DNA of 43,329 bases from NCBI GenBank assembly GCA_029560215.1, contig JAKPZB010000091.1, positions 1-43,329 on the forward strand. Direction: 5' to 3'. Under the pieces are notes generated by a model, which was not told the origin of the DNA, did no database searches, and worked only from the letters and a program-made list of their open reading frames with translations. This DNA is from Methanobacteriota archaeon. GTDB taxonomy: Archaea; Thermoplasmatota; Thermoplasmata; Methanomassiliicoccales; UBA472. The position numbers and the translations under genes are program-made. Positions 1,955 to 42,159 of the stretch are shown in pieces (the stretch's first letter is position 1; each line of letters opens with the position of its first letter).

Positions 1955-3607
1955 TCAGACGTCCGGCCACAGTTCGGCGGCCATCTCCCGGAGCTTGACC
2001 TTCATGATCTTACCGCTAGCGGTCATGGGGTAATCGTCCACGAAGTGCACGTGCTTGGGGATCTTGTAGAAGGCGATCTGTCCGCGGCAGTGGTCCACGA
2101 TGTCCTCGACCGTCAGGTTCGCCCCCGGCCTCAGCTTGACGAAGGCCGCGGGAAGCTCGCCGTACTTGGCCGACGGCAGACCGACCACCTGGACGTCCGC
2201 CACGCCTTCTATGTGGTGTATGAAGTCCTCCACCTCCTTGGGGTAGATGTTCTCCCCGCCGCGGATGATCATGTCCTTGAGGCGCCCGGTGACCGCGTAG
2301 TAACCGTCCTCGTCCTCCATTCCGATGTCCCCGGAGTGCAGCCAGCCGTCCTTGTCGATGGCCTTGGCGGTCTCCGCGGGCATCTTGTAGTAGCCTTTCA
2401 TCACGTTGTGGCCGCGGCAGCACAGCTCGCCGTGCTTTCCCGGCCCAAGATGCTCTCCGGTTTCGGGATCTATGATCGCCACCTCGATGCCCGGGAACGC
2501 CTTTCCCACGGTGGAACATTTCTTGGCCAGGCTCTTTTCGTCGTAACGCGTCTGGGTCATGGCCGGGCTCGACTCGGTGAGGCCGAAGACGATGGTCACT
2601 TCGCGCATGTTCATGCGTTCCACGCACTCCTCCATGGTCTTCACCGGGCAGGGTGAGCCGGCCATTATGCCGGTGCGCAGGGTGGAGAAGTCGAACTTGT
2701 CGAACAGCCTGTGCTCCAGGATGCTGATGAACATGGTCGGTACGCCGTACAGGGCGGTGCAGCGCTCCCTCTCCACGGACATCATGACGTTCACCGGGTC
2801 GTACTTCTCCAGTATGACCATGGTGGAGGCGTGGTTGAGACAGGCCATGACCGCCAGCACGCAGCCGAAGCAGTGGAAGAGCGGAACCGGTATGCATACC
2901 CGGTCGGCGGGGGTGAAGTTCTCGTTCACCCCCACCCAGTAGCCGTTGTTGGTGATGTTGAAATGGGTGAGCATGACCCCTTTGGGGAAGCCGGTGGTCC
3001 CCGAGGTGTACTGCATGTTGACGACGTCGTGGGTGGATAGTTCGCCTTGCCTCTGGAGGTACTCCTCATCGCTCACCGCCACGCTCATGGCCAGGAGCTC
3101 GTTCCAGGAGTACATGCCCCGGTGCTTCTCCGGGCCCAGGAAGAGCACGCGCTTGAGGTGCGGGTAGTTGTTCGAACGAAGCTGCCCCCGGGGCTGCTCC
3201 TTGAGCTCGGGTATCAGCTCATATAGCGTTTTCACGTAGTCAGTGTCCCGGTAACCGTCGATCGCGAAGATGTTCTCGCAGTCCGATTGCTTTAGCAGGT
3301 AGTCGATCTCCGCGTTGCGGTAGTTGATGTTGATCGTCAGCAGTATGGCCCCGATCTTCGCGGTGGCGAACTGCAGGGTCACCCAGTGAGGGACGTTCGT
3401 CGCCCAAACCGCCACCTTTTCCCCCTTCTTGAGGCCCAGGGCCATGAGACCCTTGGCCGCCTTATCGACCGTATCCCGGAACTCCCTCCAGGTCTGCCGG
3501 TAGTCCCGGTCGGCGTAGACCACCGCGTCGTTGTCCGGAACCCTATCCACGGCCTCGTCCAGCAGCTGGCCGATGGTGGCCTCCCGGGTGATGTTCTCCC
3601 TCGGCAT
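1955..3607 (-). CDS. AMP-forming acyl-CoA synthetase (AMP-binding enzyme)
   Basis: AMP-binding signature YTSGTTGFPKG, plus GLTESSP, HSGDIG, GRLKDMIIRGGENIYP and TASGKI. Confidence 0.93.
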   Translation of the reverse strand: MPRENITREATIGQLLDEAVDRVPDNDAVVYADRDYRQTWREFRDTVDKAAKGLMALGLKKGEKVAVWATNVPHWVTLQFATAKIGAILLTININYRNAEIDYLLKQSDCENIFAIDGYRDTDYVKTLYELIPELKEQPRGQLRSNNYPHLKRVLFLGPEKHRGMYSWNELLAMSVAVSDEEYLQRQGELSTHDVVNMQYTSGTTGFPKGVMLTHFNITNNGYWVGVNENFTPADRVCIPVPLFHCFGCVLAVMACLNHASTMVILEKYDPVNVMMSVERERCTALYGVPTMFISILEHRLFDKFDFSTLRTGIMAGSPCPVKTMEECVERMNMREVTIVFGLTESSPAMTQTRYDEKSLAKKCSTVGKAFPGIEVAIIDPETGEHLGPGKHGELCCRGHNVMKGYYKMPAETAKAIDKDGWLHSGDIGMEDEDGYYAVTGRLKDMIIRGGENIYPKEVEDFIHHIEGVADVQVVGLPSAKYGELPAAFVKLRPGANLTVEDIVDHCRGQIAFYKIPKHVHFVDDYPMTASGKIMKVKLREMAAELWPDV

Positions 3608-3616
3608 CGGCTCACC

Positions 3617-4180
3617 TCAGATGGGGGTATAGATCACGGCGAAAATCTCCGCCGCCTCCCCGTTCGCCGCGCCCAGGTGGTGAGGCACCACGGAATTGTA
3701 GTGCATGGAGTCGCCCTCTTGCAGGTAGAACCTCTCCTTCCCGTACACCAATTCCACCTCGCCCTTGACCACGATGACGAACTCCTCGCCTTCGTGGGAG
3801 GAGGTGCAGGTGTCGTCGCAAGGCTGCACCACTATGTACAGCGGCTCCATGTGACGGTCGGTCTTGCCCTTGGCCAGGGGATAGTAGTGGTACTTGCCGA
3901 CCGCCCCCTCCTTGTGGGCGGCGGTCTCCTCGGTCCGGTCCTTGTAACGGGTGATGACCGGGTCCGGGCGGACCTGGTCGTCCATGAAGGTGCCCAGTCT
4001 CTGCCCCAGCGCCCTGGAGAGCTTGACCAGCACGCCCAGGGGCGGATAGACCTCCCCCGCCTCGGCCTTACGCACCAAACTGGCCTCCACGCCGGCGTTC
4101 TTGGCCAGGTCCTCCACGCTCATGTTCAATCTCTCGCGATAGGCGCTTATCCGCGTACCAAGTTTGTCAGGAGTGGTCAA
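3617..4180 (-). CDS. XRE-family HTH + cupin transcriptional regulator
   Basis: N-terminal HTH (RERLNMSVEDLAK...PPLGVLVKLSRALG) and cupin motifs HEGEEF and GDSMHYNSVVPH. TTG start after GGAGG. Confidence 0.9.
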   Translation of the reverse strand: MTTPDKLGTRISAYRERLNMSVEDLAKNAGVEASLVRKAEAGEVYPPLGVLVKLSRALGQRLGTFMDDQVRPDPVITRYKDRTEETAAHKEGAVGKYHYYPLAKGKTDRHMEPLYIVVQPCDDTCTSSHEGEEFVIVVKGEVELVYGKERFYLQEGDSMHYNSVVPHHLGAANGEAAEIFAVIYTPI

Positions 4181-4320
4181 TCGGTCATCCTCCGGTCAGC
4201 CAGGCATCAGGCCCAGGTCCGTAATGTCCTAACCTAAACCGCTGGACGTTTAAGAAACTTACTTAATGTGGTCATTTGACCAACGTAATAAGAAAAAATG
4301 AGCAGAGTGCTTGAGCACTC

Positions 4321-5718
4321 TCATAAATTGTTCTTCGCCCAATCGAAAGCCGCCTGGAACACCTTCCGGTTCCTCTCCACCAGGGCCGGCTTGGCCGCGA
4401 AGCTGGCGTCGAGCGCCGCGAGCACCTTCTCCAAGGGAAGGCCGTGCAGATCCAGGGCCGTCAGCGCGACGAGCAGCGCGGTATTGGCCGCCTTGGGCGT
4501 TCCCGCCTCCGCCGCGATCCGGGCGGCGGGGAAGGCCATCACCCTCACCCCTTCCCGGGCCTTCGGCTCCGGCAGGGAGGCCTCGTGGATCACGACGCCT
4601 CCGGCGGGCACGGTCGCGGCGAACTTCTCCGCCGCCTGCTGGCTCATGGCCACCAGGACGTCCGGCGAGTCGACCGCGGGCGATCCCACCTCCTTTCCGC
4701 TGACCACCACCGAGCAGGAGGCGTAACCGCCCCTCTGTTCCGGCCCGTAGCTGGGGAGCCAGGATACGAAGCGGCCGGATGCTCCGGCGGCCTCCGCCAC
4801 CACCAATCCCAGCGATAGCACGCCCTGGCCTCCAAAACCGGAGAACTTGAACCGGCGCTCCTTGAAACCCGGATCGACCTTGGCCGCGGGGCCTTCGTGC
4901 CCCTTGCCCAACAGCTCCTCGATGGTCGATCGGGGGACGGGGTTCGCCACCGGCGCCGGCTCGGCGGAGCGGTCCCGGAAGTTGCCCAACGGGAACACCT
5001 TCTCCATCTGATCGTTGACGAACCGGGCGGAGGCGACAGGGTCCATGCGCCAGTTGGTCGGGCAGGGGGAGAGGAACTCCACGAAGGCGTACCCTTTGCC
5101 GTCCCTTTGGATCTCCAGGGCCTTGCGCATCGCCTTCTTGGCCTGCATGATGCGCTTGGTGTCGGAAACGGAAACCCGCTCGATGAACATCGGGGCGTCC
5201 AATTGGTTCAGCATCTCGCACACCTTCAGCGGATAACCTTCCTTGACCGGATCGCGGCCGAAGGGCGTGGTGGTGGTTCTCTGGCCGAGCATGGTGGTCG
5301 GGGCCATCTGCCCGCCGGTCATGGCGTATATGGAATTGTTCACGAAGAAGCAGGCGAAATGCTCACCGCGGTTCGCCGCCTGGAAGGCGTTGTTGAAACC
5401 GATCGCTCCCAGATCGCCATCTCCCTGATAGGATATGACCACCTTTCCCGGTAGGGCGCGCGAAACGCCGGTGGCCACCGCGGACGCCCGTCCGTGCGGC
5501 CCGGCCACGTTCCCGCAGTCGAAGTAGTGGAAGCAGAAGGCCGCGCATCCCACCGGCGAAACGAAGACGGTGCGGTCCTGGATGCCCAGCTCGGCCATGG
5601 CCTCCCCGATGAGCTTGTGGATGATCCCGTGGCCGCAGCCGGGGCAGTAATGCGTGGCCTTCGTACCGGGTTCCTTCCGGTCGAAGGTCTCGTAGAATCC
5701 CTTGGCCTTCCGGATCAT
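4321..5718 (-). CDS. vorA: 2-oxoacid (ketoisovalerate):ferredoxin oxidoreductase, beta-gamma fusion subunit
   Basis: YCPGCGH and TPP motif GDGD...NN, then the gamma domain ([15 protein letters not shown]). Confidence 0.88.
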
Positions 5719-6770
5719 GCCCTCGCCTCCAGCATCTCGCGGGCTCGAAGCACCACGTCCTCCACCGTCATCATGTTCCCGCCCATTCGGTTGATGAGTT
5801 CGACATCGCAGTCGATCTTGCGGTCCAGATGCAATAGCACATCGTCCCGGTACTGCCCGTTGCTTAGCTCCACCGCCAGCAGCTTCCCGGCCTTGGCCGC
5901 CTTGTTGAGCGCCTTCGCCGGGAACGGGAACAGGGTGAGCGGATGGAACAGTCCGGCCTTCACGTTTTGGGACCTCAGCTCGTCCACGGCGGAGCGGGCT
6001 ATCCGGGAGCAGGTCCCGTATCCGGTCAGCACGATCTCCGCGTCGCCGGTCTTATAAGATTCGGAGAGGGCGTCGGCCTCCATCGAGGCGTACTTTTCCT
6101 GCAGCATCCAGTTATGCCGCTCCTGCAGCTCGTTGTCCAGGTATATCGACGACACCAGGTTCCCGCGGGTGTCGGCGTCCCCATGCACCGCCCAGGAGGA
6201 GGTTTCCGGACGGGGCGATTCCATTTTCGGAAGTTGCAGGAACTCCATCATCTGGCCGAGAACGGCGTCCGCCAGTACCACGACCGGATTGCGGTACTTG
6301 AAGGCCATCTCGAAGGCCTTGATGGTCAGGTCGCACATCTCCTGGACGGAGGCGGGGGCCAGCACGATGTTGTGGAAGTTGCCGTGACCGCCGCCCTTCA
6401 CCGCCTGATTGTAATCGCCCTGCTCCGGGCCGATATTGCCCAGGCCGGGTCCCACCCGCTGAACGTTGACGATGACCGCCGGGAGCTGCGCCCCGGCCAG
6501 GTAGGACAGGCCTTCCTGCATGAGCGATATCCCGGGTCCGGAGGAGGCGGTCATGGCCAGCTTACCGGCCGAGGCCGCCCCGAAGATCATGTTGATGGTG
6601 CCGGTCTCACACTCCGCCTGGAGGTGCTCCCTTCCCAGCTGCGGGAAGTACTCCGCCACGGCGTGCGCGATATCGCTCGCCGGTGTGATCGGATAGCCGA
6701 AATAGGTGTCGCATCCCGCGTAGACGGCGCCGATGGCCACCGCCTCGTTGCCCTTGACGAACTTCCTCAT
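5715..6770 (-). CDS. vorB: 2-oxoacid (ketoisovalerate):ferredoxin oxidoreductase alpha subunit
   Basis: Motifs [25 protein letters not shown] and RVGPGLG. Translationally coupled to its neighbours. Confidence 0.9.
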
Positions 6771-7003
6771 TGCCCATCCCTCCCATCGTCCACCTGTACC
6801 GCATAAGGTTCTGGGCAGTTATAGAAGCAGGCGGCGCAGCCGATACATCCCTCACCAACGTATTCGACGGCATTGTAGCCGCGGCGGTTGACGCGGCCGG
6901 AGAGGCGCAATACCTTCTTGGGGCAGGCGGCCACGCAGCGGCCGCAACCCTTGCACTCGTTCTCGTCGATGATGGGGCGGGAGATCCTCTTCTCGGTGCT
7001 CAT
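6767..7003 (-). CDS. vorC: 2x[4Fe-4S] ferredoxin (delta) subunit of the oxidoreductase
   Basis: Two CxxCxxCxxxCP motifs. First gene of the vor operon. Confidence 0.88.
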
Positions 7004-7067
7004 CGCCTATCTGGATAGAGGGTCGGTACTTAAAGTTACTTCAACCTGCTTCGTCGGTGCGCCTGGC

Positions 7068-7871
7068 TCAGGTGCTACCGTATTTCCGCACGTGTTCCCA
7101 GGCCTCATAGAGGTCCGGGTCCTTGTCCGGTCCGTCGTACAGTCCCATGTCCTTTCGCTGGAACAACTTGCGGTCCTCGCCCACCGGACAGACCTTGATG
7201 CATATGCCGCAGGGGGAGCGATACCTCTTCTTCAGTTCGATGCTCCGCTTGGAACACTTGACCTTGTCTATGGACGCCCGCGGATAATCGATATCGCCGA
7301 TGGCTTGCACCGGGCAGGCCTTGATGCAGCGGTGGCAGCGAACGCACAGCGACCTTTCCATGGGCTTTCCGGGCGGAATGTCGGCCGTGGTGAAGACGGA
7401 TACGAAGCGCACCCTGGGCCCAAACTCCTTGGTGAGCAGCATGTTGTTCAGGCCGAAGGTCCCCAGCCCTGCCAGGTAAGCGGCGTGGCGGTGGGAGAAG
7501 AATGCATAGGGATTATCGACCAGCACCTCCACCGATCCGTAGCCGTCCCTGGGGACGTACACCGAGGCGTGGCCCAGGCTGTTCAGCAGCTCCGAGAGCT
7601 GATAGGCCCTCTCATCCAGCTGGGTGTTGAGGTTCGTGTACAGCTCCTTGTACCAGATAGAGGGGGAGGTCTCCAGGATCGGAAGCGTGACTGGAAGCCC
7701 CAGGACCACCACGGTGCGGCATCCCGGGAATATCGCCTTGGGGCTGAACTCCTGGGGTGGGAAAGGTCCGAACGGCGGGTCGTCCCAACTGTCGGCGGAG
7801 GCGAAACCGACCATCTCGACCCCCCATTCTCGGCAGCGGTCCATTATCTTCCGGCGCAGGTCGGCGCTCAT
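7068..7871 (-). CDS. Epoxyqueuosine reductase (QueG)/reductive-dehalogenase-like 4Fe-4S protein
   Basis: SHRHAAYLAGLGTFGLNN and GPRVRF motifs, with Fe-S motifs CVRCHRCIKACP and CGICIKVCP. Confidence 0.85.
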   Translation of the reverse strand: MSADLRRKIMDRCREWGVEMVGFASADSWDDPPFGPFPPQEFSPKAIFPGCRTVVVLGLPVTLPILETSPSIWYKELYTNLNTQLDERAYQLSELLNSLGHASVYVPRDGYGSVEVLVDNPYAFFSHRHAAYLAGLGTFGLNNMLLTKEFGPRVRFVSVFTTADIPPGKPMERSLCVRCHRCIKACPVQAIGDIDYPRASIDKVKCSKRSIELKKRYRSPCGICIKVCPVGEDRKLFQRKDMGLYDGPDKDPDLYEAWEHVRKYGST

Positions 7872-19422: not shown

Positions 19423-20192
19423 AGCTGAAAGGGCGGGAGATATTCAAGGGAAAGGCGATCGGACGGCTGCTGTTATTGGACGAACCGTTCAGCTTCCTGG
19501 GCGGGGTCGACCCGAAGACCGGGCTGCTGACGGTGGCCTCCGGGCGGGAAGGGGAGAACGTGGAGAACCGTATCCTGGTCTTCCCGTACGGCAAAGGCTC
19601 CACGGTCGGTTCGTACACCATCATGGACCTGAAGAAGAACGGACACCTGCCCGCGGCCATCGTCAACGCCCAGGCGGAGACGATAGTGGCCACCGGGGCG
19701 GTCATGGCCGGAGTGCCGATGATCGACTCCATCGACCTCTCCCTGCTCCGGGACGGCGACCGGGCAGTGGTGATCGGCGACGGATTGGACATGATGGACC
19801 TGGTGGAGAAGAGAGTGGTCACCTGCGTGCTGCGCCGTAAAGGGAAGATGCTGATACTGAAGCGCAGCCAGAAGGTCGGGACCAACAGAGGCAAGTGGGC
19901 CGCGGTGAGCGGCTACATCGAGCGCGGCGAGAGGCCGGAGGAGACCGCCCTGAAGGAGGTGGCCGAGGAGACCGGGATAACCACCGCCCGGCTTGAAGGC
20001 CGGGGAGAGACGCTGCGCATCCGGGACGGAACCTACGTTTGGAGCATCTATCCCTTCCTGTTCGAGGTGGGCGACGAGGAGGTCAAGCTGGACTGGGAGC
20101 ACACCGAGTGCGCCTGGGTGGAGGTCTCGGAGCTACAGGGCTACGACACCGTCCCCGGCTTCCTCAAGGTGCTGGGATCACTGGGACTATAG
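19419..20192 (+). CDS. Aconitase X swivel subunit (DUF126) fused to a C-terminal Nudix hydrolase
   Basis: N-half has SFLGGVDP.TG and GKGSTVGSY. C-half has the Nudix box GYIERGERPEETALKEVAEETG and LDWEH. GTGA coupling to the upstream gene. Confidence 0.9.
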   Translation: MKLKGREIFKGKAIGRLLLLDEPFSFLGGVDPKTGLLTVASGREGENVENRILVFPYGKGSTVGSYTIMDLKKNGHLPAAIVNAQAETIVATGAVMAGVPMIDSIDLSLLRDGDRAVVIGDGLDMMDLVEKRVVTCVLRRKGKMLILKRSQKVGTNRGKWAAVSGYIERGERPEETALKEVAEETGITTARLEGRGETLRIRDGTYVWSIYPFLFEVGDEEVKLDWEHTECAWVEVSELQGYDTVPGFLKVLGSLGL

Positions 20193-23100
20193 CGTCCCGT
20201 CCACTTCCTTCTCCAGCAGGTTCAGCTCGTTGGCGTCCAGGGTGGAAGGGTTCAGCACCATCATCATGATGGAGTTGTTTATGGCCACCTGGTCCCTCAG
20301 CGACTGGACGAAGCGCAGCACGGTGAGGAAGTTGTTGTTGGTTATCAGGTACTCCAACCCATCCAGCAGCACCACGCCCTGCCCCTGGGTCAGGAACTGC
20401 TCGAGCGAGTAGTTCAGCTTCTCCAGGTCCTTGGGGCGCAGGCTGTCCTCCTTGCCCACGTTGCTCAGCCAAACGATCGGGGTCTCGCCCAGTTCGTACT
20501 TGCCGCGGATCTTCACCGGGTAGTTGCGGGTGATGCAGAATCCCCGCTTGCCCTTCTTCAACTGTTCCATGAACAGCTCGTACGAGCGGTCGGAACGGTC
20601 GTCCTTGATCAGGTAGCTGTATCCATCCTGCAGTCCCTGGACCTTGGGCGCTTCCGTTTCCTCCTCTACGACCTCCACCCGCAGCGAGGCGCCGCAGGAA
20701 GGGCAGTTCAGGTCCTTGGCGGATACCTCCCGCCCACACTTGGCGCAGGGGGTGCAGCGCTGGAAGCCTCCGTCGGCGATATACCTCAGTATCTCGTCGA
20801 TGGTCTTGCTCCCCAGCCCGGGGACGCTCTTCAGCTCTTCCCGGTCGGCCGCCTGCAGCCGGTCCAATGAATCGTATCCAGCATCGTATAGCATCTCTGC
20901 CTTGAGCTCGTTCATGCGCGGAATGCGCAAGAGGTAAGGCGCCATCTCCGCCTTGTCCATGGTCTTGCCGGTGCCCTCCGGGACGGCCTTGCAGACCTCG
21001 ACGGCGCGGTCGGAGTGGTGCAGCGCCCGGCGCACGTCGGCCTTGGGCAGCTTGGTCATCTCCTCGATCTTGTCCTCGCCCAACTGCTTCAGGTCGGCCT
21101 CGGTGCGAACCCCGGCGTCCACCAGGGCCTCGGCGGCCTTGGCGGTTATCCCGGGTATCTTGGCCAGCTCCTTGATGGAATCCTTCAGGTTCATGGAGGT
21201 GATGCCCATCTCCACTTTCTCCCCCTCGATCTCCCACTTGCCGACCTGGTCGCCGTGGACCTCCATCACCAGTTCCAGGGATTTGGAGCGCACCTCGGAC
21301 ATGATGTGCTGCTTCCACATCTTGATGTATTCCGCCAACTTCGCGTCGGCGCGGACCTCAACCTTGATGAACTCCTCGACGTCCAGCTTCATCTCCTTGC
21401 GGGTCTGCTGGATCCGGCGTATGATCTCCCGGGAGAACCCTTCCGCCTCGATCTCACGGGTGACCTCGAAGTCCAGGTAGAGCTCGCCGCCGCTGAATGT
21501 GGCGGCGTAGACGTCCTTGGGAAGGGAAACGGTGAAGGATACCATGTTCGGCTCGATCTTCACCAGCTGCCCCTCGATCCCCAGGGAATACTCGCCCCGC
21601 TGCATGCTCTCCTTGATCAGTCCGGCCGGCCGGCTCTGCAGCAGCACCGCGATCTTGGAGGCCCATTGCCGATACACCTTCCCGATGGCCATGGGGTTCG
21701 GCACGACGTTGAGAACGGTCTCCGACCACTCCTCGCCGGTGCCCACGTACTCGACCTCCTTGACATTGGCCTGGGACTTGAGAATGTCCTCCAGGGCGCG
21801 CAATGCGATAAGGGTGTCGTTGCTGTCGACCTTGATCACCACCCTTTTCATCGGCCAGCGCAGCTTGACGTTCTTCAGCTGTCTCTCCCGGGTGACCGTC
21901 TCCACGATCTCCTGGACCATGGACATGGCCTTCTCCAGGCGTTCGTCGACCTTGGTCAGGTCGCTGTTGGGCCAGTCCATCATGTGCACCGTCGGCTTGG
22001 AGCCGTCCATGTGCCGGTAGACCTCCTCGGCCAGATGCGGACATATCGGCGCCAGCAGCAGCGTGGTCTCCATTATCGCGTCGTATAGCGTGCGATAGGC
22101 GGCCAGCTTCCCGGCGTCACCCTCCTCGCTCCACATGCGGTCCCTGATCAATCGAACGTACCATCTCGACAGATCGTCCAGTATGTACTCTTCCAAGGCC
22201 CTTCCGGCCTTGTGCAGCTCCAGGGCGTTCACCTGGCGGGTGAACTCGTTCTTGAGCTTCTCGGTGCGGGAGATGAGCCAGATGTCCTCCTGTTTGAGAT
22301 GCGCGCGCACCGCCTCCTTGGTGATGCGCTGCGGCTCGAAGCGGTCGATGGCCATGTAGGTGGTGGCGAAGTTGACCACGTTCCAGAAGACGTTCAAGGT
22401 CTTGCGGGCGTTCTTCACCCCCTCCATCTGGAAGGGGATGTCCTCCCAAGGGGCGGAGGTCTTCAGCAGGTAGAAGCGAAGGGCGTCGGCCCCGTGCTCC
22501 TTGATGACCTTGCCCGGCTCGACCACGTTGCCCTTGCTCTTGGACATGGGCTGGCCTTGGCCGTCCAGCATCCATCCGTGCATCAGCACCGATTCGTATG
22601 GAGCGCGTCCGAAGGCGATCACGCCCGCGGCGAGCTGCGAATAGAACCATCCCCTGGTCTGATCGTGAGCTTCGACGATGAACTTGGCCGGCCAGAGCCG
22701 CTCGAAAGCGTCCCGCCTCTTGGGGAATCCCAGCTGCGCCCACGAGGCCACGGCCGAATCGAACCAAACGTCCAGAACGTCCGGCACCCGGCTCATCTTG
22801 CCCCCGCACTTGGGGCAGACCAGCTTGACGGAGTCTATCCAGGGGCGGTGAAGCTCCATGTCCTCCACGTAGCCTTCGGCTCCCTTGAGCTCGTCGGTCA
22901 TGCCCACCACCCGTATCTCTCCGCAGGAACAGGTCCAGACCGGGATGGGTATGCCCCAGTACCTCTGCCGGGAGATGCACCAGTCGCGGGCGTTCATGGC
23001 CCAGTCGTATTCGCGGGAGGACCCGGCCCAGTCCGGGGTCCAGCGGACCTTCTCGATCTCCTCCAGCATCTGGTTCTTGACCTGGGTGACCCGCAGGAAC

Positions 23101-24347
23101 CACTGGTCGGTGGTTCGGAATAGAACGGGAGATTTACAACGCCAGCAGTGGCCGAAACGGTGTTCGATGGTGCCGCTGAAGAACAAGCGGTCGTTGGCCT
23201 CCAGGTCCTTGAGCAGCTCCGGATTGGCCTTCTTTATGTGCATGCCGACGTACTTGCTTCCCACCAGCGGGGTGTACACCCCGGCCTCGTCGACCGGGCA
23301 GAAGGGCTCGAGCCCGAACTCCTTGCCCAGCTCGAAGTCCTCCGGGCCGTGGCCGGGGGCGATGTGCACCAGTCCGGTGTTGGAGGCCTCCACGTTCTTG
23401 GAGGGAAGGACCTTGTGCAGCCATTTTCCAGTGGCCTGCGCCTGATAGGGGACCATGTCGATGAAGGGGGTTATGTACTCCACTCCGACCAGGTCGTCGC
23501 CCTGGATGGTCTGGAGCACCTCATACTTCTCCCAGCCTCCCAGGTCCTTGATCTCCTCCTCCAGCCCCTTCATGATGATGACCGTGTCGGTGACCCCGAT
23601 GCGCCGGTAGCGCACCTTGACGTATTCGAAATCGGGGTGAGCGGCCACCGCCAGGTTGGCCGGCAACGTCCAGGGAGTGGTGGTCCAGATCAAGAGCGAG
23701 ACCTTGGGGTCGTCCTTCAGTCGGAACTTGACGTAGATCGAAGGGTCCTTCTCGTCCCAATAGTCGATCTCCGCCTCGGCCAGGGCGGTCTCGCAGCGCG
23801 GGCAGCCCGGAAGCACCCGGCTGGCCTTGATCAGAAGTCCTTTGTCGTAAGCGCGCTTGAGCGTCCACCAGGCCGCTTCTATGTAGCCCGGGGCGATGGT
23901 GAGGTACGGTCTATCCCAATCGAACCACACGCCCAGCTCTTTGAAGTCGGCGTTCATCTGCTTCTGGAAGTCCAGGGCGAAGTTCTTGCACGTACCGACG
24001 AAGCGGTCGATGCCGTACTCCTCGATCTCCTTCTTGTTCTTCACGCCTATGGACTTCTCCACCTTGACCTCGATGGGTAGCCCATGCATGTCGTAGCCAG
24101 GAGTATCGCTCACGTTGAACTTCTGCATGCGCTTGAACCGGACGATCATGTCCTTGATGGTCTTGTTCATCGCTGTGCCAAGGTGGATGTATCCAGTGGT
24201 GTAGGGAGGACCGTCCACGAAATAGAAGTCCGGGCCGGAGGCCCTGAGTTCCTTGGTCTTCTTGTACGCGTCGGTCTCCGCCCAAAGGGCCTGCACCGAC
24301 CTTTCCAGCGCGCTAGGGTTATAACTGCCTTGGACCTGCTTTATCAT
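20187..24347 (-). CDS. ileS: Isoleucine--tRNA ligase with C-terminal HhH-HhH-Zn ribbon-DUF835 extension
   Basis: DGPPY...HLGT (HIGH), WTTTPWTLP, DWCISRQRYWG, DQTRGWF and PMSKS (KMSKS). Total 1386 aa, with the core ending near aa 1050. Confidence 0.95.
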   Translation of the reverse strand: MIKQVQGSYNPSALERSVQALWAETDAYKKTKELRASGPDFYFVDGPPYTTGYIHLGTAMNKTIKDMIVRFKRMQKFNVSDTPGYDMHGLPIEVKVEKSIGVKNKKEIEEYGIDRFVGTCKNFALDFQKQMNADFKELGVWFDWDRPYLTIAPGYIEAAWWTLKRAYDKGLLIKASRVLPGCPRCETALAEAEIDYWDEKDPSIYVKFRLKDDPKVSLLIWTTTPWTLPANLAVAAHPDFEYVKVRYRRIGVTDTVIIMKGLEEEIKDLGGWEKYEVLQTIQGDDLVGVEYITPFIDMVPYQAQATGKWLHKVLPSKNVEASNTGLVHIAPGHGPEDFELGKEFGLEPFCPVDEAGVYTPLVGSKYVGMHIKKANPELLKDLEANDRLFFSGTIEHRFGHCWRCKSPVLFRTTDQWFLRVTQVKNQMLEEIEKVRWTPDWAGSSREYDWAMNARDWCISRQRYWGIPIPVWTCSCGEIRVVGMTDELKGAEGYVEDMELHRPWIDSVKLVCPKCGGKMSRVPDVLDVWFDSAVASWAQLGFPKRRDAFERLWPAKFIVEAHDQTRGWFYSQLAAGVIAFGRAPYESVLMHGWMLDGQGQPMSKSKGNVVEPGKVIKEHGADALRFYLLKTSAPWEDIPFQMEGVKNARKTLNVFWNVVNFATTYMAIDRFEPQRITKEAVRAHLKQEDIWLISRTEKLKNEFTRQVNALELHKAGRALEEYILDDLSRWYVRLIRDRMWSEEGDAGKLAAYRTLYDAIMETTLLLAPICPHLAEEVYRHMDGSKPTVHMMDWPNSDLTKVDERLEKAMSMVQEIVETVTRERQLKNVKLRWPMKRVVIKVDSNDTLIALRALEDILKSQANVKEVEYVGTGEEWSETVLNVVPNPMAIGKVYRQWASKIAVLLQSRPAGLIKESMQRGEYSLGIEGQLVKIEPNMVSFTVSLPKDVYAATFSGGELYLDFEVTREIEAEGFSREIIRRIQQTRKEMKLDVEEFIKVEVRADAKLAEYIKMWKQHIMSEVRSKSLELVMEVHGDQVGKWEIEGEKVEMGITSMNLKDSIKELAKIPGITAKAAEALVDAGVRTEADLKQLGEDKIEEMTKLPKADVRRALHHSDRAVEVCKAVPEGTGKTMDKAEMAPYLLRIPRMNELKAEMLYDAGYDSLDRLQAADREELKSVPGLGSKTIDEILRYIADGGFQRCTPCAKCGREVSAKDLNCPSCGASLRVEVVEEETEAPKVQGLQDGYSYLIKDDRSDRSYELFMEQLKKGKRGFCITRNYPVKIRGKYELGETPIVWLSNVGKEDSLRPKDLEKLNYSLEQFLTQGQGVVLLDGLEYLITNNNFLTVLRFVQSLRDQVAINNSIMMMVLNPSTLDANELNLLEKEVDGTL

Positions 24348-37833: not shown

Positions 37834-37892
37834 TGAAGCATATTCGAAACCTCCTTATGTAGTAAAGTAATCCCCCGGTGTAGGTGCGGTAA

Positions 37893-38093
37893 TTGGCTCC
37901 GAGTCTGCTTTGGGTAAGTACCATGTGGGGAGCGTCGGTAGGAATCATAATCGCGGATATAGTCTACTTCTTCACCGATTCTCTGGCCTCGTTCCTGCTC
38001 TTCATCCCTTTTGCCATCATTGGCTATCTCTTGGCTAGAAGGTTCCTGCGTAAATGGGGTTCGGTCGAAGGATACATAAAAGGCGGCAAATAG
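37893..38093 (+). CDS. Small two-TM membrane protein
   Basis: 66 aa with two hydrophobic segments followed by a basic tail (ARRFLRKW). AGGTG precedes the TTG start. Confidence 0.6.
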   Translation: MAPSLLWVSTMWGASVGIIIADIVYFFTDSLASFLLFIPFAIIGYLLARRFLRKWGSVEGYIKGGK

Positions 38094-38146
38094 GCCAACA
38101 TTTTTAATCACAACCTACAATATACACGGCAGGAGAAGGGATTCCT

Positions 38147-38680
38147 TTGCCAGACATAAGGGATAGGGTGGAGGACGACCGCGGATTGTTGAAGAAGATC
38201 CAATTGGTCGTTCCGGGATTCCGTGGTTATAGGATCAGGGAGGACCTAAGGGACTCCGATCGCATGCTCAGGGCCGAGCTGGCCAAGAGGCTGGCCTTGC
38301 AGAGGTCCCAACTGGAGGATGCGCGAAGAGCCCTGGTCAGGGAGAATCCCATGTCCAAGGCCCTGGAGGAGATGGGCGGGGTGGTCAGCTCCATGAAGAG
38401 AGTGGAGGGCGAGATGCTGCACGCCGAGGTCGGCTACTCCGGGATCTCCGCCGACGTGAAGATGAAGGACGGCGAGCTCAACCGGCTCTACGAGTACGAC
38501 TATTCGATGATCGAGAGCCTGAACTTCATCGATGACGCGCTCATCAAGGTTCCGGAGATGGTCCGGTCCAGCAATGACGCCGGACTGCGGGACGCGGTGG
38601 AGACGGTGAGGACCAGGGTCGACGGGTTGGAGAGCCGCTTCAAACGCCGCAAGGCGGCCATAACTGGAACGGGGCTGTGA
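38147..38680 (+). CDS. Alpha-helical hypothetical protein, first gene of the SPFH operon
   Basis: PGFRGY..RE..R..D..LR, GYSG and L..LYEYD patterns, with heptad-like charged helices. AGGAG RBS and TTG start. Confidence 0.8.
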   Translation: MPDIRDRVEDDRGLLKKIQLVVPGFRGYRIREDLRDSDRMLRAELAKRLALQRSQLEDARRALVRENPMSKALEEMGGVVSSMKRVEGEMLHAEVGYSGISADVKMKDGELNRLYEYDYSMIESLNFIDDALIKVPEMVRSSNDAGLRDAVETVRTRVDGLESRFKRRKAAITGTGL

Positions 38681-38684
38681 TCAT

Positions 38685-39815
38685 ATGAGCTTGATCGGTG
38701 CTGAGACGTTCAACTGGGAGGACGGGAACAAGCGGAACAACATCATGTACCGCATGCCCCGCAACATAAAGTTCAACGACAACATCGTGGTCCGCGAGGA
38801 CGAGATCGCCGTGTTCTATCGGGACGGGAAGGCCTTCGCCTACCTGGACCGTCCGGACCGTTACGCCCTCACCTCCTTGAACGCGCCTATAATCGGCAAG
38901 GTCATCGAGGCCTTATCTGGCGCCAGGCAGCAGGCCGAGATCGTTTACCTGCAGAAGAGGGCCTTCGACGGGAAATACGGAAGCAAGCAGCCCTACCAGT
39001 TCCGCGACGCCGAGTTCGGGATGGTCAATCTGCGGGTGTTCGGCGAGTTCCGTTACAAGGTAGGCGCTCCGGAGAACTTCGTCAACCAGTTCGTGGGAAC
39101 CTTCAACTTCACCACCTCCGCCGAGGTCGAGGACCGCATAAAGGAGCAGATGGTGGTGCTCATCTACAACGCCATCGGCGAGCTCAAGAACAAGGGCATG
39201 GGAGTGGCCGACCTGGCCAGCCAGCTCATGAACATCGAGCAGGTCGTTCTGGCGAAGGCCAAAGATCACTTCGAGCTCTACGGCGTGCTGATCGACAAGG
39301 TCTCGGGAATGTACATCTCCCTGCCCGACGAGGTGCAGAAGGCGGTGGACATGAGGGCCTCCATGCAGATCCTGAACACCAACTATGCCACCTACCAGGC
39401 CGGACAGGCCATGCGCGAGGCGGCCTCCAACCCCTCGGGCGGGGCCGCGGCGGCTGGTGTCGGGGTCGGCGCTGGTTTCGGCGCGGGATACATGATGGTC
39501 GATGCTATGAGACAGGGCGGGACCGCTCCGCCGGCTGGTGGCGCTCCCGCTCCCGCGGCGGCGGCCGTTCCAACGGTCGCCTGCCCCAAGTGCGGCACTC
39601 CCAACCCCGCGGACGGCAAGTTCTGCCGCAACTGCGGGAACAAGATGCAGAACAACACCGTGAAATGCGGAAAATGCGGCAACGAGGTGCCGTCAGACTC
39701 CAAGTTCTGTCCGGAATGCGGCAACCAGCTCAAAGGCAGCAAGAACTGCCCCAAGTGCGGAAAGGAGTCGCCGACCAACGCCAAGTTCTGTCCGGAGTGT
39801 GGTACTAGCTTCTAA
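38685..39815 (+). CDS. SPFH/band-7 (YdjI-like) protein with three C-terminal Zn ribbons
   Basis: IVVREDEIAVFYRDGK, FRD.EFG.V.LR.FG.F, ISLP.EVQKA.D and a Gly/Ala-rich GVGVGAGFG segment, then 3x CxxCG-x9-FCxxCG. Confidence 0.88.
   Translation: MSLIGAETFNWEDGNKRNNIMYRMPRNIKFNDNIVVREDEIAVFYRDGKAFAYLDRPDRYALTSLNAPIIGKVIEALSGARQQAEIVYLQKRAFDGKYGSKQPYQFRDAEFGMVNLRVFGEFRYKVGAPENFVNQFVGTFNFTTSAEVEDRIKEQMVVLIYNAIGELKNKGMGVADLASQLMNIEQVVLAKAKDHFELYGVLIDKVSGMYISLPDEVQKAVDMRASMQILNTNYATYQAGQAMREAASNPSGGAAAAGVGVGAGFGAGYMMVDAMRQGGTAPPAGGAPAPAAAAVPTVACPKCGTPNPADGKFCRNCGNKMQNNTVKCGKCGNEVPSDSKFCPECGNQLKGSKNCPKCGKESPTNAKFCPECGTSF
39582..39803 (+). repeat. Three tandem Zn-ribbon coding repeats within the SPFH gene
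   Basis: CPKCGTPNPADGKFCRNCG / CGKCGNEVPSDSKFCPECG / CPKCGKESPTNAKFCPECG. Confidence 0.8.
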
Positions 39816-39824
39816 GGTGATCCG

Positions 39825-40568
39825 ATGGCCAGTATGAAGTGCACCAAATGCGGGGCTCCGGTGGAGTTCGATACCGGCGACAAGTTCGTCAAGTGCTCCT
39901 ACTGCTCCTCGCAGATCTTCATCGACCGGTCCGGGGCCGGCTTCTATTATGCGTTACCGTTCTCCGTCCAGGAGAACGATGCGGTGGGCATCTTCCGCCG
40001 CTGGGCGGGCGGTTCCACCAGGGCCAAGGACCTGGACAAGCTGGCCCAGATATCCTCGCTTAAGAAACAGTACTTCCCGGTCTACATGTTCAAGCGGGAC
40101 GTGAACGGGATGGAGCAGGTTTACGTGGAACCGGCCGCGTCCACCACCCTGCCTGGGCTGCACAGCCTCAAGGTCCCGGGAGGCGACCTCAAGGTGTTCG
40201 ACGATAAGTTCAGCACCAACGGGGCGGAGATGATCAAGATCGACATCGAGATGGCCCCCTATCTGAGCAACCTACCCGGCGCGCCCAAGGAGCAGGCGCT
40301 GGTGTACTTCCCCATTTGGAAGCTGGATTACGTCTTCGAGCAGAAGAACTACGTGGTGGTCATCAGCGCCTCTTCGGGAGAGGTGTTCTCCGCGGAGTTC
40401 CCGCCGCGCAGCTCGGCGGCGTACATCGCGGTGGCCGGAATAGGCTTCCTGGCCTTCCTGGCCGAAGGAATATTGGCATTGTTCTCGCCGCTATTGGCGG
40501 TGGGGTTGATCGCTGTCACCATCGCGGGCGTGTTCGTCGCGTCCAACTTCGTCGCCAGGAGGATGTGA
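39825..40568 (+). CDS. Zn-ribbon membrane protein (YdjG-like), paralog 1
   Basis: CTKCGA...CSYC, YFPVY and YFPIW..Y..ISASSGEV, with two C-terminal TM helices. Confidence 0.8.
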   Translation: MASMKCTKCGAPVEFDTGDKFVKCSYCSSQIFIDRSGAGFYYALPFSVQENDAVGIFRRWAGGSTRAKDLDKLAQISSLKKQYFPVYMFKRDVNGMEQVYVEPAASTTLPGLHSLKVPGGDLKVFDDKFSTNGAEMIKIDIEMAPYLSNLPGAPKEQALVYFPIWKLDYVFEQKNYVVVISASSGEVFSAEFPPRSSAAYIAVAGIGFLAFLAEGILALFSPLLAVGLIAVTIAGVFVASNFVARRM

Positions 40569-40570
40569 GC

Positions 40571-41575
40571 GTGTCCATCAGCGTAGGTTTGAACTGTCCG
40601 GCCTGCGGAGGCGCCATCCAGATCAGCGAGGGGGAGAACGTCCTTAACTGCAATTACTGCGGTTCGCTGCTGTGGGCGGAAGGGGACGCCGGGGTGATGA
40701 CCGTGGCCTTCCGCAATGCTCAAGGCCGGGATAGCGTCCTCCGGGCCACCGAGGAATGGTGGCGCAAGGGTTTCAAGGCGAGGGACCTCAGGACCAAAGG
40801 GAAGCTCCTGGAATGCTATCCGATATACCTGCCTTTCTGGAGCACCACCACTCGGGTGGCGGGTTGGATATGCGGTTATGAGGAGAGGCATCACACCGAC
40901 CGCAACGGGAACACTCGTACGGAACGAATACCCAAGGAGGAGATGGTCCTCCACGATTACCGATACACCAACATCGCCTGCGACCCTGGCGATCTGGGCG
41001 TAAAGTTTCTCAGGAACGTGAGCGGCGAGGCTTCGTTCGCCGACTTCGAGAGCATTCCCACCTTCGAGAGCACCACCAGCAAGGACGATATGGTGGAGAT
41101 GTCCAAGCAGAACGCCCTGAGCGACGCGAGGAGCGACGCCAACGTTCCGCACATAACCTTCGAGAAGGTGACGGCGATACCGAAGCAGATAAGTCAGATA
41201 TTCTACCCGGTCTGGGTCGTCCGCTACTCCTACGGGGAGAGGATGTACATGGCCACCGTGGACGGGGTGACCGGGAAGGTGCTGTCCGGGCGGGCTCCGG
41301 GCGACGCGCTCTACCAGAGCTTGGCCATGACCGGGGGCACCTCCGTGAGCGGACTTATCGCCGCCGGCTCCATAGCCTTCGGGATCGGCTCGGGCGAGGG
41401 GACCATAGCCATAATCGGCCTGGTGGTGGGGGCGGCGGTCCTGGGCTTCACCTACCGCTTCTTCCGACACGGCTCGGAGATAATCGAGGGCGATTTCGAC
41501 GATAAACGCTCCTCCGACCTGGGCAAGGAGCTGCGCAAAGGATTGAAATTCAATGTGGGAGGGTTCCGGATATGA
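40571..41575 (+). CDS. Zn-ribbon membrane protein (YdjG-like), paralog 2
   Basis: CPACGG...CNYCG, YLPFW and FYPVW..RY..VDGVTGKV, with two C-terminal TM helices. GTG start after AGGAGG. Confidence 0.8.
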   Translation: MSISVGLNCPACGGAIQISEGENVLNCNYCGSLLWAEGDAGVMTVAFRNAQGRDSVLRATEEWWRKGFKARDLRTKGKLLECYPIYLPFWSTTTRVAGWICGYEERHHTDRNGNTRTERIPKEEMVLHDYRYTNIACDPGDLGVKFLRNVSGEASFADFESIPTFESTTSKDDMVEMSKQNALSDARSDANVPHITFEKVTAIPKQISQIFYPVWVVRYSYGERMYMATVDGVTGKVLSGRAPGDALYQSLAMTGGTSVSGLIAAGSIAFGIGSGEGTIAIIGLVVGAAVLGFTYRFFRHGSEIIEGDFDDKRSSDLGKELRKGLKFNVGGFRI

Positions 41576-42159
41576 AGGTAATCCAGATCAAGTGCCCCCG
41601 CTGCCAACAGCCCATCTACTCCAAGGTCAAGGACCGGGCGTTCTACTGCAATCATTGCCGCACCATGCACATCCGCAACGGAGGGCAGGAGGTCATCGAC
41701 TTCGATATCGGCGAGTTCAACGTCAACGCTCCGGCCGACCGCCTGTACATGCCTTTCTGGAGGCTGTTCTCCGCGTTCTCCATCAACCAGTCCAAGGTGG
41801 CCGGGGGCACCATCCACAAGCTGGGCCGGATGATCAAGGGCGAGGCCAACGGCGGCAACCTGTTCATCTACGTTCCCGCCTGGGAGACCGAGGTCAACGA
41901 GTTCAAGCACTGGTCCGTCGGTCTCACCGAAAATCAGCCGATGTACTCGCTGCGCTCGGACTTCAACAACGTGGAGAGGTGGCCTACCACGATGTCCAAG
42001 GAGGAGGCCATGCAACTGGCCGATTTCGTCATCGTAACCATGGAGGCGGAGCGTCCTGGCGTCCTTCAATACCTCGATTACGGGTTGCAGGTTCACGACG
42101 CCCGTTTGGTGTATCTGCCGTTCGTCCGCGGACCGTCGGGCCTGGCTCCCGGCTTCTGA
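41572..42159 (+). CDS. Soluble Zn-ribbon protein, paralog 3
   Basis: CPRC...CNHC, LYMPFW and VYLPF, with no TM segment. ATGA coupling to the upstream gene. Confidence 0.78.
   Translation: MKVIQIKCPRCQQPIYSKVKDRAFYCNHCRTMHIRNGGQEVIDFDIGEFNVNAPADRLYMPFWRLFSAFSINQSKVAGGTIHKLGRMIKGEANGGNLFIYVPAWETEVNEFKHWSVGLTENQPMYSLRSDFNNVERWPTTMSKEEAMQLADFVIVTMEAERPGVLQYLDYGLQVHDARLVYLPFVRGPSGLAPGF

Follow-up and report, generated by a model that had tools for sequence, protein, structure and literature searches.

SPFH proteins and PspA/ESCRT-III have a central part in how membranes are organised and repaired. Among YdjI-type SPFH systems, that of Bacillus is the only one studied, and PspA is taken as its effector. 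In B. subtilis YdjI, which is described as soluble, depends on two membrane proteins, YdjG and YdjH, for its arrival at the membrane, and PspA in turn depends on YdjI for its localisation (Scholz 2021, PMC8581546). YdjG combines two zinc ribbons with a YpeB-related domain and a transmembrane (TM) segment, and YdjH is a TPM protein (Ravi 2024, PMC11237479). The operon, pspA-ydjGHI, has been renamed pspA-samGHI, and loss of SamI leads to global transcriptional changes for which PspA is not needed (Baur 2026, PMC13713150). Here we examine a five-gene operon, g1 to g5 (Table 1), in contig JAKPZB010000091.1 of a Methanobacteriota archaeon (GTDB class Thermoplasmata, order Methanomassiliicoccales; assembly GCA_029560215.1). 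The whole 43,329-nucleotide (nt) stretch that was analysed is called the window.

DUF4178 is a known intracellular component of PspA operons; in its published contexts, which are from Proteobacteria, it accompanies genes of the CesT/Tir-PspA, YjfL and spermine-synthase-like kinds (Ravi et al. 2024, PMC11237479). In Archaea, the ESCRT 'Meth_adaptin' loci encode a protein that joins SPFH, coiled-coil and zinc-ribbon parts (Makarova et al. 2024, PMC10936438). The operon in the window shares with these loci an archaeal SPFH protein with zinc ribbons in a conserved neighbourhood, in their case one of membrane remodelling, but the Vps4, ESCRT-III and adaptin-like genes that they hold are lacking here (best Snf7 match E 0.026, below cut-off).

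The likeness to pspA-ydjGHI is closer. The genes are tightly packed, g2 has the YdjI/SamI layout, in which a soluble Band_7_1 protein continues through a low-complexity linker into zinc fingers at the C-terminus, and g3 and g4 resemble YdjG/SamG as membrane proteins with a zinc ribbon, a putative YpeB-related domain and TM helices. Unlike pspA-ydjGHI, the archaeal operon has no gene for PspA or for a TPM protein such as YdjH. Its first gene encodes instead a member of a four-helix-bundle family, g1, which is not reported in the available text of the B. subtilis papers. The anchor is represented three times, by the paralogs g3, g4 and g5, of which g5 lacks TM segments, and each copy has one zinc ribbon rather than the two of YdjG; g2 differs from the description of YdjI in carrying three zinc ribbons. 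An earlier reading of the DNA alone, called here the original prediction, had proposed both the kinship with pspA-ydjGHI and the lack of a recognisable PspA or TPM protein. The kinship holds at the level of architecture. As for the lack, PspA_IM30 had no match in the genome that the window belongs to (82.8% complete), and TPM (PF04536) had none in the five proteins and none in that genome at E<=0.1.

With moderate confidence, we lean towards reading the operon as a YdjGI/SamGI-type SPFH module for membrane maintenance or envelope stress, with a previously undescribed core subunit, g1. Its SPFH and zinc-ribbon halves are of a kind already known. The g1 family, its pairing with Band_7_1, a five-family module shared by Archaea and Bacteria, and the persistence of this module in a class where no PspA was found were described nowhere in the literature searched, which did not extend to bioRxiv supplements or to the jravilab web app of Ravi et al.

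The SPFH protein and its putative anchors

Over residues 23-228 the SPFH protein g2 scored 110.8 bits with Pfam Band_7_1 (PF13421; cut-off 24 bits, E 9e-32), a match that spans profile positions 6-210 of 211. A Gly/Ala-rich low-complexity linker (residues ~250-295) leads to three Cys4 zinc ribbons in residues 296-376, where 12 Cys are arranged as three CxxC...CxxC sets with DZR and Zn_Ribbon_1 matches. No TM segment was predicted in g2; the maximum 19-residue Kyte-Doolittle hydropathy was 1.38, and was reached only in the Gly/Ala linker. Judged from its sequence, g2 is a soluble Band_7_1 protein of the YdjI/SamI type. It is the sole Band_7_1 match in the genome, and its profile retrieved no solved relative from PDB sequences at E<=0.01.

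In both g3 and g4 a Cys4 ribbon lies at the N-terminus and a hydrophobic hairpin in the C-terminal part. In the AF2 (AlphaFold2) model of g3 (mean predicted local distance difference test, pLDDT, 83.7) the ribbon occupies residues 1-32 and an alpha/beta domain residues 50-190, and these are followed by helices at 198-217 and 222-246. A structural search with g3 (VIA-wide) was dominated by the TM hairpin. With residues 45-193 the best PDB match was the C-terminal domain of YpeB (5boi_A, Z 7.4, root-mean-square deviation 2.4, 67 residues aligned), followed by 4exr_A (Z 6.9). The YpeB match is modest, yet Ravi et al. relate YdjG to YpeB in the same way (PMC11237479), and g3 is predicted to be a tail-anchored membrane protein of YdjG/SamG-like architecture. 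The longer paralog g4 has an insertion of ~90 residues, a TM hairpin (hydrophobic segments at 268-295) and a charged C-terminal tail, and gave a weak Pfam PepSY match (E 0.12).

Paralogy among the zinc-ribbon proteins was established by pairwise comparison. g3 and g4 aligned by BLASTP (E 8e-12) and by hhalign (probability 99.3%, E 3e-20, 199 columns), and g4 and g5 by hhalign (probability 96.5%, E 8e-10, 136 columns). g5 contains a Cys4 ribbon and repeated Y-x-P-x-W strands but no TM segment, and appears to be a soluble, divergent paralog of g3 and g4. The descriptions given to the five proteins in the original prediction, namely a helical g1, an SPFH protein with three ribbons, two ribbon proteins with hairpins and one soluble ribbon protein, all fit these results.

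A bridge to bacterial proteins was provided by Comamonas. The g3/g4 profile (alignment A5) matched a Comamonas 'TFIIB-type zinc ribbon-containing protein' with an hhalign probability of 99.85% (E 1.5e-30, 305 columns), and the gene for this protein lies on a plasmid, directly after a gene for a Band_7_1 protein with a helix-turn-helix (HTH) domain. The Comamonas protein has two ribbons, as does an archaeal relative (locus L038), versus one in g3 and g4. We consider that g2 with g3 and g4 very probably forms a YdjI/YdjG-type pair. Other searches were less informative. Homologues of g4 were only close unnamed relatives or proteins mislabelled 'RpoP' because of the ribbon, the clusters that resembled g5 in the ESM Atlas were bacterial, unnamed and without a structure, and PHROGs gave matches at the level of the zinc ribbon only.

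The g1 family and its pairing with Band_7_1

g1 is all-helical in its AF2 model (pLDDT 90.5, predicted template modelling score 0.86), which was built with a 117-sequence alignment and places an N-terminal helix (residues 4-21) before a four-helix bundle. It has no Cys and no TM segment and is presumed to be cytosolic. Its start residues are invariant in 13 orthologues, and positions P23, G24, G27, Y28, R35, D38, R42, G96, Y97 and D118 are near-invariant. No Pfam family matched g1 at E<=1. The sole library family that did was NCBIfam NF047596, the LIMLP_15305 family (E 4e-17, 62.5 bits, residues 12-170 of 177). To judge by this match g1 is related to that family but falls below its 210-bit equivalog cut-off, so it is no equivalog. 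The family, from Leptospira, carries a name and no assigned function; the single literature mention found for LIMLP_15305 is as a flanking gene in a table of small RNAs (PMC7567364). A profile search of 1.84 billion representative proteins clustered at 50% identity placed 1504 clusters in the g1 family at E<=1e-3, and a homologue search returned only close, unnamed relatives. None of 14 control model genomes had a match, which may explain why the family escaped study.

The original prediction had suggested that g1 may take the effector role and had named PspA and ESCRT-III for comparison; the searches gave no match to either. A profile of 117 g1-family members found no PspA, Vipp1 or ESCRT-III chain among PDB sequences at E<=10, and Foldseek against the PDB gave nothing at E<=1e-3. 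In an exhaustive structural search (VIA-wide) the top 50 matches were generic helical bundles without a PspA or ESCRT-III entry, a result that does not exclude families beyond those 50. The bundles included the plant NLR coiled-coil Rx CC (Z 11.4, the best) and the pore-related protein SPECT (Z 10.6), and all matches lay below ~Z 13, the noise level of this search for helical bundles. The model shows a compact four-helix bundle plus the N-terminal helix, to be set beside the long alpha1-alpha2 hairpin with following helices of ESCRT-III. g1 is thus not recognisable as a PspA or ESCRT-III protein at the level of sequence and fold searches. PspAA was also considered as an identity for g1 and rejected, as PspAA is built from three helices plus a beta-sheet of four strands, versus the all-helical g1.

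Two variations within the family were noted. The Chloroflexia g1 proteins P0204, P0236 and P0251 have low-complexity C-terminal tails of 200-260 residues in which Gly, Gln, Pro, Ser and Thr abound. In a few Thermoplasmata genomes (G063, G100, G018 and G107; locus L044) the g1 family has a second and more divergent member, encoded away from the main operon.

Conservation of the operon was surveyed in 85 Thermoplasmata loci from two scans, with open reading frames (ORFs) scored by jackhmmer. In loci with at least 1.2 kb available 3' of g1, g2 directly adjoined g1 in 67/71. Where at least 3.7 kb was available, g2, g3, g4 and g5 were all present in the same order in 37/55. Flanking genes vary between loci that keep the gene set. 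The set is conserved as a unit. The operon is more than a chance finding, as the start residues of g1 are invariant and the gene order recurs while the flanks differ. Variant layouts place a soluble g4-like gene before g1, g2 and a further g4-like gene, or follow g1 and g2 with one double-ribbon TM protein.

At the genome level g1 was present in 86/121 and Band_7_1 in 88/121 sampled Thermoplasmata genomes, a sample that includes one unpublished genome (G089), and the tallies per taxonomic family were near-identical. Both genes occurred together in 85 genomes, g1 without Band_7_1 in one and Band_7_1 without g1 in three; in the single g1-only genome g1 lies 137 nt from a contig end. The pair is mostly single-copy across the sample.

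A separate arrangement was seen in one Thermoplasmata lineage, where g2 and the second g4-like gene are separated by genes for a multi-TM protein of 147 amino acids (aa) and for an HtpX-like M48 peptidase (PF01435, E 1e-35) that has an EF-hand-like insert (Table 1). The gene for the TM protein was seen in 17 loci and that for the peptidase in 16, in two of which (L072 and L074) it is upstream of g1.

The original prediction had called the module archaeal, but the bacterial loci show that it is not specific to Archaea. The bacterial g1 set (alignment A4) comprised at least 587 relatives, from which 80 loci, mostly of Anaerolineae, were kept. A Band_7_1 gene directly followed g1 in 66 of the 73 loci with room for it, most of them from Chloroflexota. 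The Anaerolinea thermophila pair (L131, positions 6001-6534 and 6552-7598) is isolated, with unrelated genes on either side. The core of the module is thus the g1-g2 pair, which is found across domains. Further phyla were reached by a scan seeded with proteins in which g1 is fused to DUF4178. Three Actinomycetota loci (L197, L201 and L202) contain all five families, in the order g3-g4-g5-g1-g2, and so does a Thermoanaerobaculia locus of the Acidobacteriota (L204), in the order g1-g2-g3-g4-g5 of the window. An Ignavibacterium locus (L205) shows g1-g2-g3-g4 and then the contig end. Homologues of g5 in the Gaiellales and Thermoanaerobaculia module loci align over the full length (E 3e-10 and 1e-10) at only ~20% identity, which suggests an old divergence rather than recent transfer. 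A Band_7_1 locus on a Nocardia plasmid had no informative neighbours. These comparisons make the YdjI/YdjG pair part of a much wider cross-domain module, whose most constant partner is g1 and not PspA.

In Chloroflexota a small protein is encoded directly 5' of g1 in L087, L163 (Table 1) and nine other loci. Besides two TM helices it shows a weak match of the PCI-like winged-helix type, and its C-terminal Cys4 ribbon follows the C-P-x-C-G-G...C-P-Y-C-G pattern, as in g3 and g4.

The g1 family is tied to Psp systems by the g1-DUF4178 fusion, a domain combination that g1 of the window lacks. In 6/7 Chloroflexota fusion loci the fusion directly precedes PspA, and in all 4 PspA-bearing fusion loci with enough contig Band_7_1 comes directly after PspA. 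In 5 of 7 loci the fusion is preceded by a gene for a small membrane protein with a zinc ribbon. In one Dehalococcoidales metagenome-assembled genome (L173, the same stretch as L175) the fusion (346 aa) is followed by PspA (E 3e-46) and by Band_7_1 with zinc ribbons (E 3e-62). The g1-type N-terminal helical domain and the Band_7_1 pairing receive no mention in the available text of Ravi et al. 2024 (PMC11237479). g1 is accordingly a partner of SPFH proteins and, where it is present, of PspA, and not a simple PspA stand-in. In a sample of 151 Chloroflexota genomes, PspA was over cut-off in 5/23 with a strong g1 match versus 75/128 of the others, a negative trend that is confounded, as relatives are not independent (the tally includes the unpublished genome G163). 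PspA was absent in 5/5 Chloroflexota genomes with a g1-Band_7_1 dyad, a sample too small to weigh. Strict substitution of PspA by g1 was rejected because the two genes co-occur, and in genome G145 are neighbours.

A complex of g1 with residues 1-250 of g2 was predicted with a score of 0.40 (runs 0.46, 0.40 and 0.00) and the verdict 'weak support', while the best of 3 controls scored 0.00. Run-to-run contact agreement was at least 0% and partner pLDDT at least 73. The mark used for this prediction is reached by 116/157 solved complexes and by 2/215 mismatched pairs; passes at <=0.60 comprise only 18/157 solved complexes and both of the mismatches. Because co-inheritance provides a strong prior, we read the score as mild support for binding of g1 to g2.

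Proposed role of the module and alternative explanations

In the mechanism that we propose, g3 and g4 would sit in the membrane through their C-terminal helical hairpins, with the ribbon and the YpeB/PepSY-like domain in the cytoplasm, a topology suggested by the Cys4 ribbons and the lack of a signal peptide. By analogy with the recruitment of YdjI by YdjG and YdjH in B. subtilis, they would dock the soluble g2, which would oligomerise under the membrane as SPFH proteins do. g2 would bind g1, its near-obligate genomic partner, as co-inheritance and the complex prediction suggest, and g1 would be the adaptor or effector of the module at the membrane. g5, the paralog of the anchors without TM segments, probably modulates or competes for the same contacts. 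In PspA-bearing lineages the g1 domain would be wired directly to PspA, in the order g1-DUF4178, PspA, Band_7_1. In Thermoplasmata the g1-SPFH core apparently works without PspA, because none was found in the genomes searched. The pair of g1 and Band_7_1 is therefore a candidate for membrane organisation or protection in PspA-less archaea and many Chloroflexota, and offers a defined, testable core of two proteins.

Several results weigh against this role in membrane maintenance. PspA_IM30, the profile for the known effector PspA, was over cut-off in 0/121 Thermoplasmata genomes searched. The function proposed for g1 is drawn from its gene neighbours only. The homology of g2 to YdjI and of g3 and g4 to YdjG, which we infer, is drawn from Pfam membership, published domain descriptions and the Comamonas protein as a stand-in. 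The YpeB match to g3 lies below Z 8, the level of a distinctive match in VIA, and Foldseek with g3 found nothing in the PDB at E<=1e-3. The g1-g2 complex prediction is a weak pass in which one of three runs scored 0.00. Finally, the Band_7_1 partners of g1 in Bacteria often end in HTH_17, an excisionase/MerR-type domain, instead of zinc ribbons, with which a signalling role fits at least as well as a repair role.

A stronger form of the proposal holds that the g1 family is an obligate Band_7_1 partner across Archaea and Bacteria and is itself a membrane-active repair or remodelling effector on an SPFH platform. We consider this doubtful. If true, it would provide a route to membrane integrity independent of PspA and ESCRT-III in lineages like Thermoplasmata.

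SPFH proteins are also known to control membrane proteases, as established for HflK/C with FtsH (PMC13086221), and stomatin-NfeD is a similar case. A g2 ring could likewise cage or regulate a protease or its substrates in membrane-protein quality control, with g1 and the zinc-ribbon proteins as adaptors or clients. The M48 (HtpX-like) gene, which lies between g2 and a g4-like gene in most of its 16 loci, would suit such a role. However, these loci belong to one related lineage and the gene is on the opposite strand, so that plain synteny could explain its position. Moreover, neither the operon of the window with its adjacent genes, nor the 37 five-gene loci, nor those Chloroflexota dyads that were examined contained a protease gene. 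Protease control is unlikely.

Less likely again is a membrane-tethered signalling switch, in which the SPFH protein would have a variable C-terminal domain for binding nucleic acid or protein, held by the anchors and g1 and released on stress to alter expression. The C-terminal module of the Band_7_1 SPFH family is interchangeable, with three zinc ribbons in the archaeal proteins and HTH_17 in others, such as the Anaerolinea partner of g1 (E 1.7e-12) and the Comamonas protein (E 1.5e-9). The global effect of SamI loss on transcription without a need for PspA (PMC13713150) points the same way. Against this, DNA binding by these C-terminal domains is hypothetical, zinc ribbons of such a type are commonly protein-protein modules, and the PspA-linked variants point to a structural role at the membrane.

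Candidate defence systems include some SPFH and zinc-ribbon proteins, and the g1 fold resembles bundles such as Rx CC and SPECT, but both matches are under the noise level given above, and antiviral defence by abortive infection with a membrane effector, which the original prediction had allowed for, is very improbable given that PADLOC-DB 2.0 has no family for g1 to g3 and matches g4 (E 0.034) and g5 (E 5.7e-4) through the zinc ribbon only, that the neighbours are housekeeping genes without mobile elements, and that the near-uniform, mostly single-copy inheritance of the pair is unlike that of patchy defence islands.

Locus layout, transcription and neighbouring genes

ORF calls confirmed the five co-oriented genes of the original prediction, with intergenic gaps of 4, 9, 2 and -4 nt from g1 to g5. 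Their coordinates are collected in Table 1 with those of the other features mentioned in the text.

Table 1. Coordinates of the operon genes and of other features in the window and in related loci.
Feature	Sequence	Position	Strand	Description	Basis
g0	window	37893..38093	+	possible sixth gene; 66-aa ORF, two hydrophobic segments, 53 nt 5' of g1	
g1	window	38147-38680	+	177 aa, TTG start	ORF call
g2	window	38685-39815	+	376 aa	ORF call
g3	window	39825-40568	+	247 aa	ORF call
g4	window	40571-41575	+	334 aa, GTG start	ORF call
g5	window	41572-42159	+	195 aa	ORF call
End of g4	window	41458-41497		~40 nt matched by RNA contigs	
IleRS-like ORF	window	20187-24347	-	1386 aa	
147-aa TM gene	L019; likewise L020-L039, L081	7711-8154 (L019)	+	between g2 and second g4-like gene	
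M48 gene	L019; likewise L020-L039, L081	8485-9786 (L019)	-	between g2 and second g4-like gene	
Second g1-family gene	L044	11280-11828		away from main operon	
Small TM/ribbon protein	L087	5391-5981		directly 5' of g1	
Small TM/ribbon protein	L163	5308-5832		directly 5' of g1	
Band_7_1 with HTH_17	L131 (Anaerolinea)	6552-7598		HTH_17 C-terminus	
Band_7_1 with HTH_17	L170 (Comamonas)	3465-4565		HTH_17 C-terminus	

A short ORF upstream of g1, named g0, may be a membrane-embedded sixth gene of the operon. Its maximum hydropathy is 2.18. By tblastn it is kept before g1 in 12 close relatives (L001-L011 and L042) with 46-73% identity, a position retained even where the next gene further upstream differs, and it is better conserved than the minus-strand ORF that overlaps it. 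g0 has no Pfam match. Its membership in the operon is tentative, because it was not detected by tblastn in the more distant loci.

Short RNA contigs from four activated-sludge metatranscriptome libraries align to portions of every gene from g1 to g5 at >=95% identity, many at >=99%. These hint that g1 to g5 are transcribed; DNA carry-over into the libraries is possible and no contig bridged any gene junction by >=31 nt on both sides, and co-transcription is therefore not shown. None of the four libraries had contigs over positions 37850-38290, a stretch that holds g0, the putative promoter and the first part of g1. Contigs in three libraries matched a short part of the g4 end (Table 1) flanked by unlike sequence. 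They probably derive from a related organism with a different C-terminal tail of g4.

The window has a GC content of ~0.60. The flanks of the operon encode housekeeping functions, including two MFS transporters, a Usp protein, FEN1 and a long isoleucyl-tRNA synthetase (IleRS). leuS lies directly downstream of the operon, and a gene for a GltB-like FMN protein lies near it on the opposite strand. No mobile-element genes or defence island were seen near the operon in the window. The IleRS-like ORF is unusual for an aminoacyl-tRNA synthetase in being fused to additional C-terminal helix-hairpin-helix motifs and to a DUF835 domain (E 1.9e-34).

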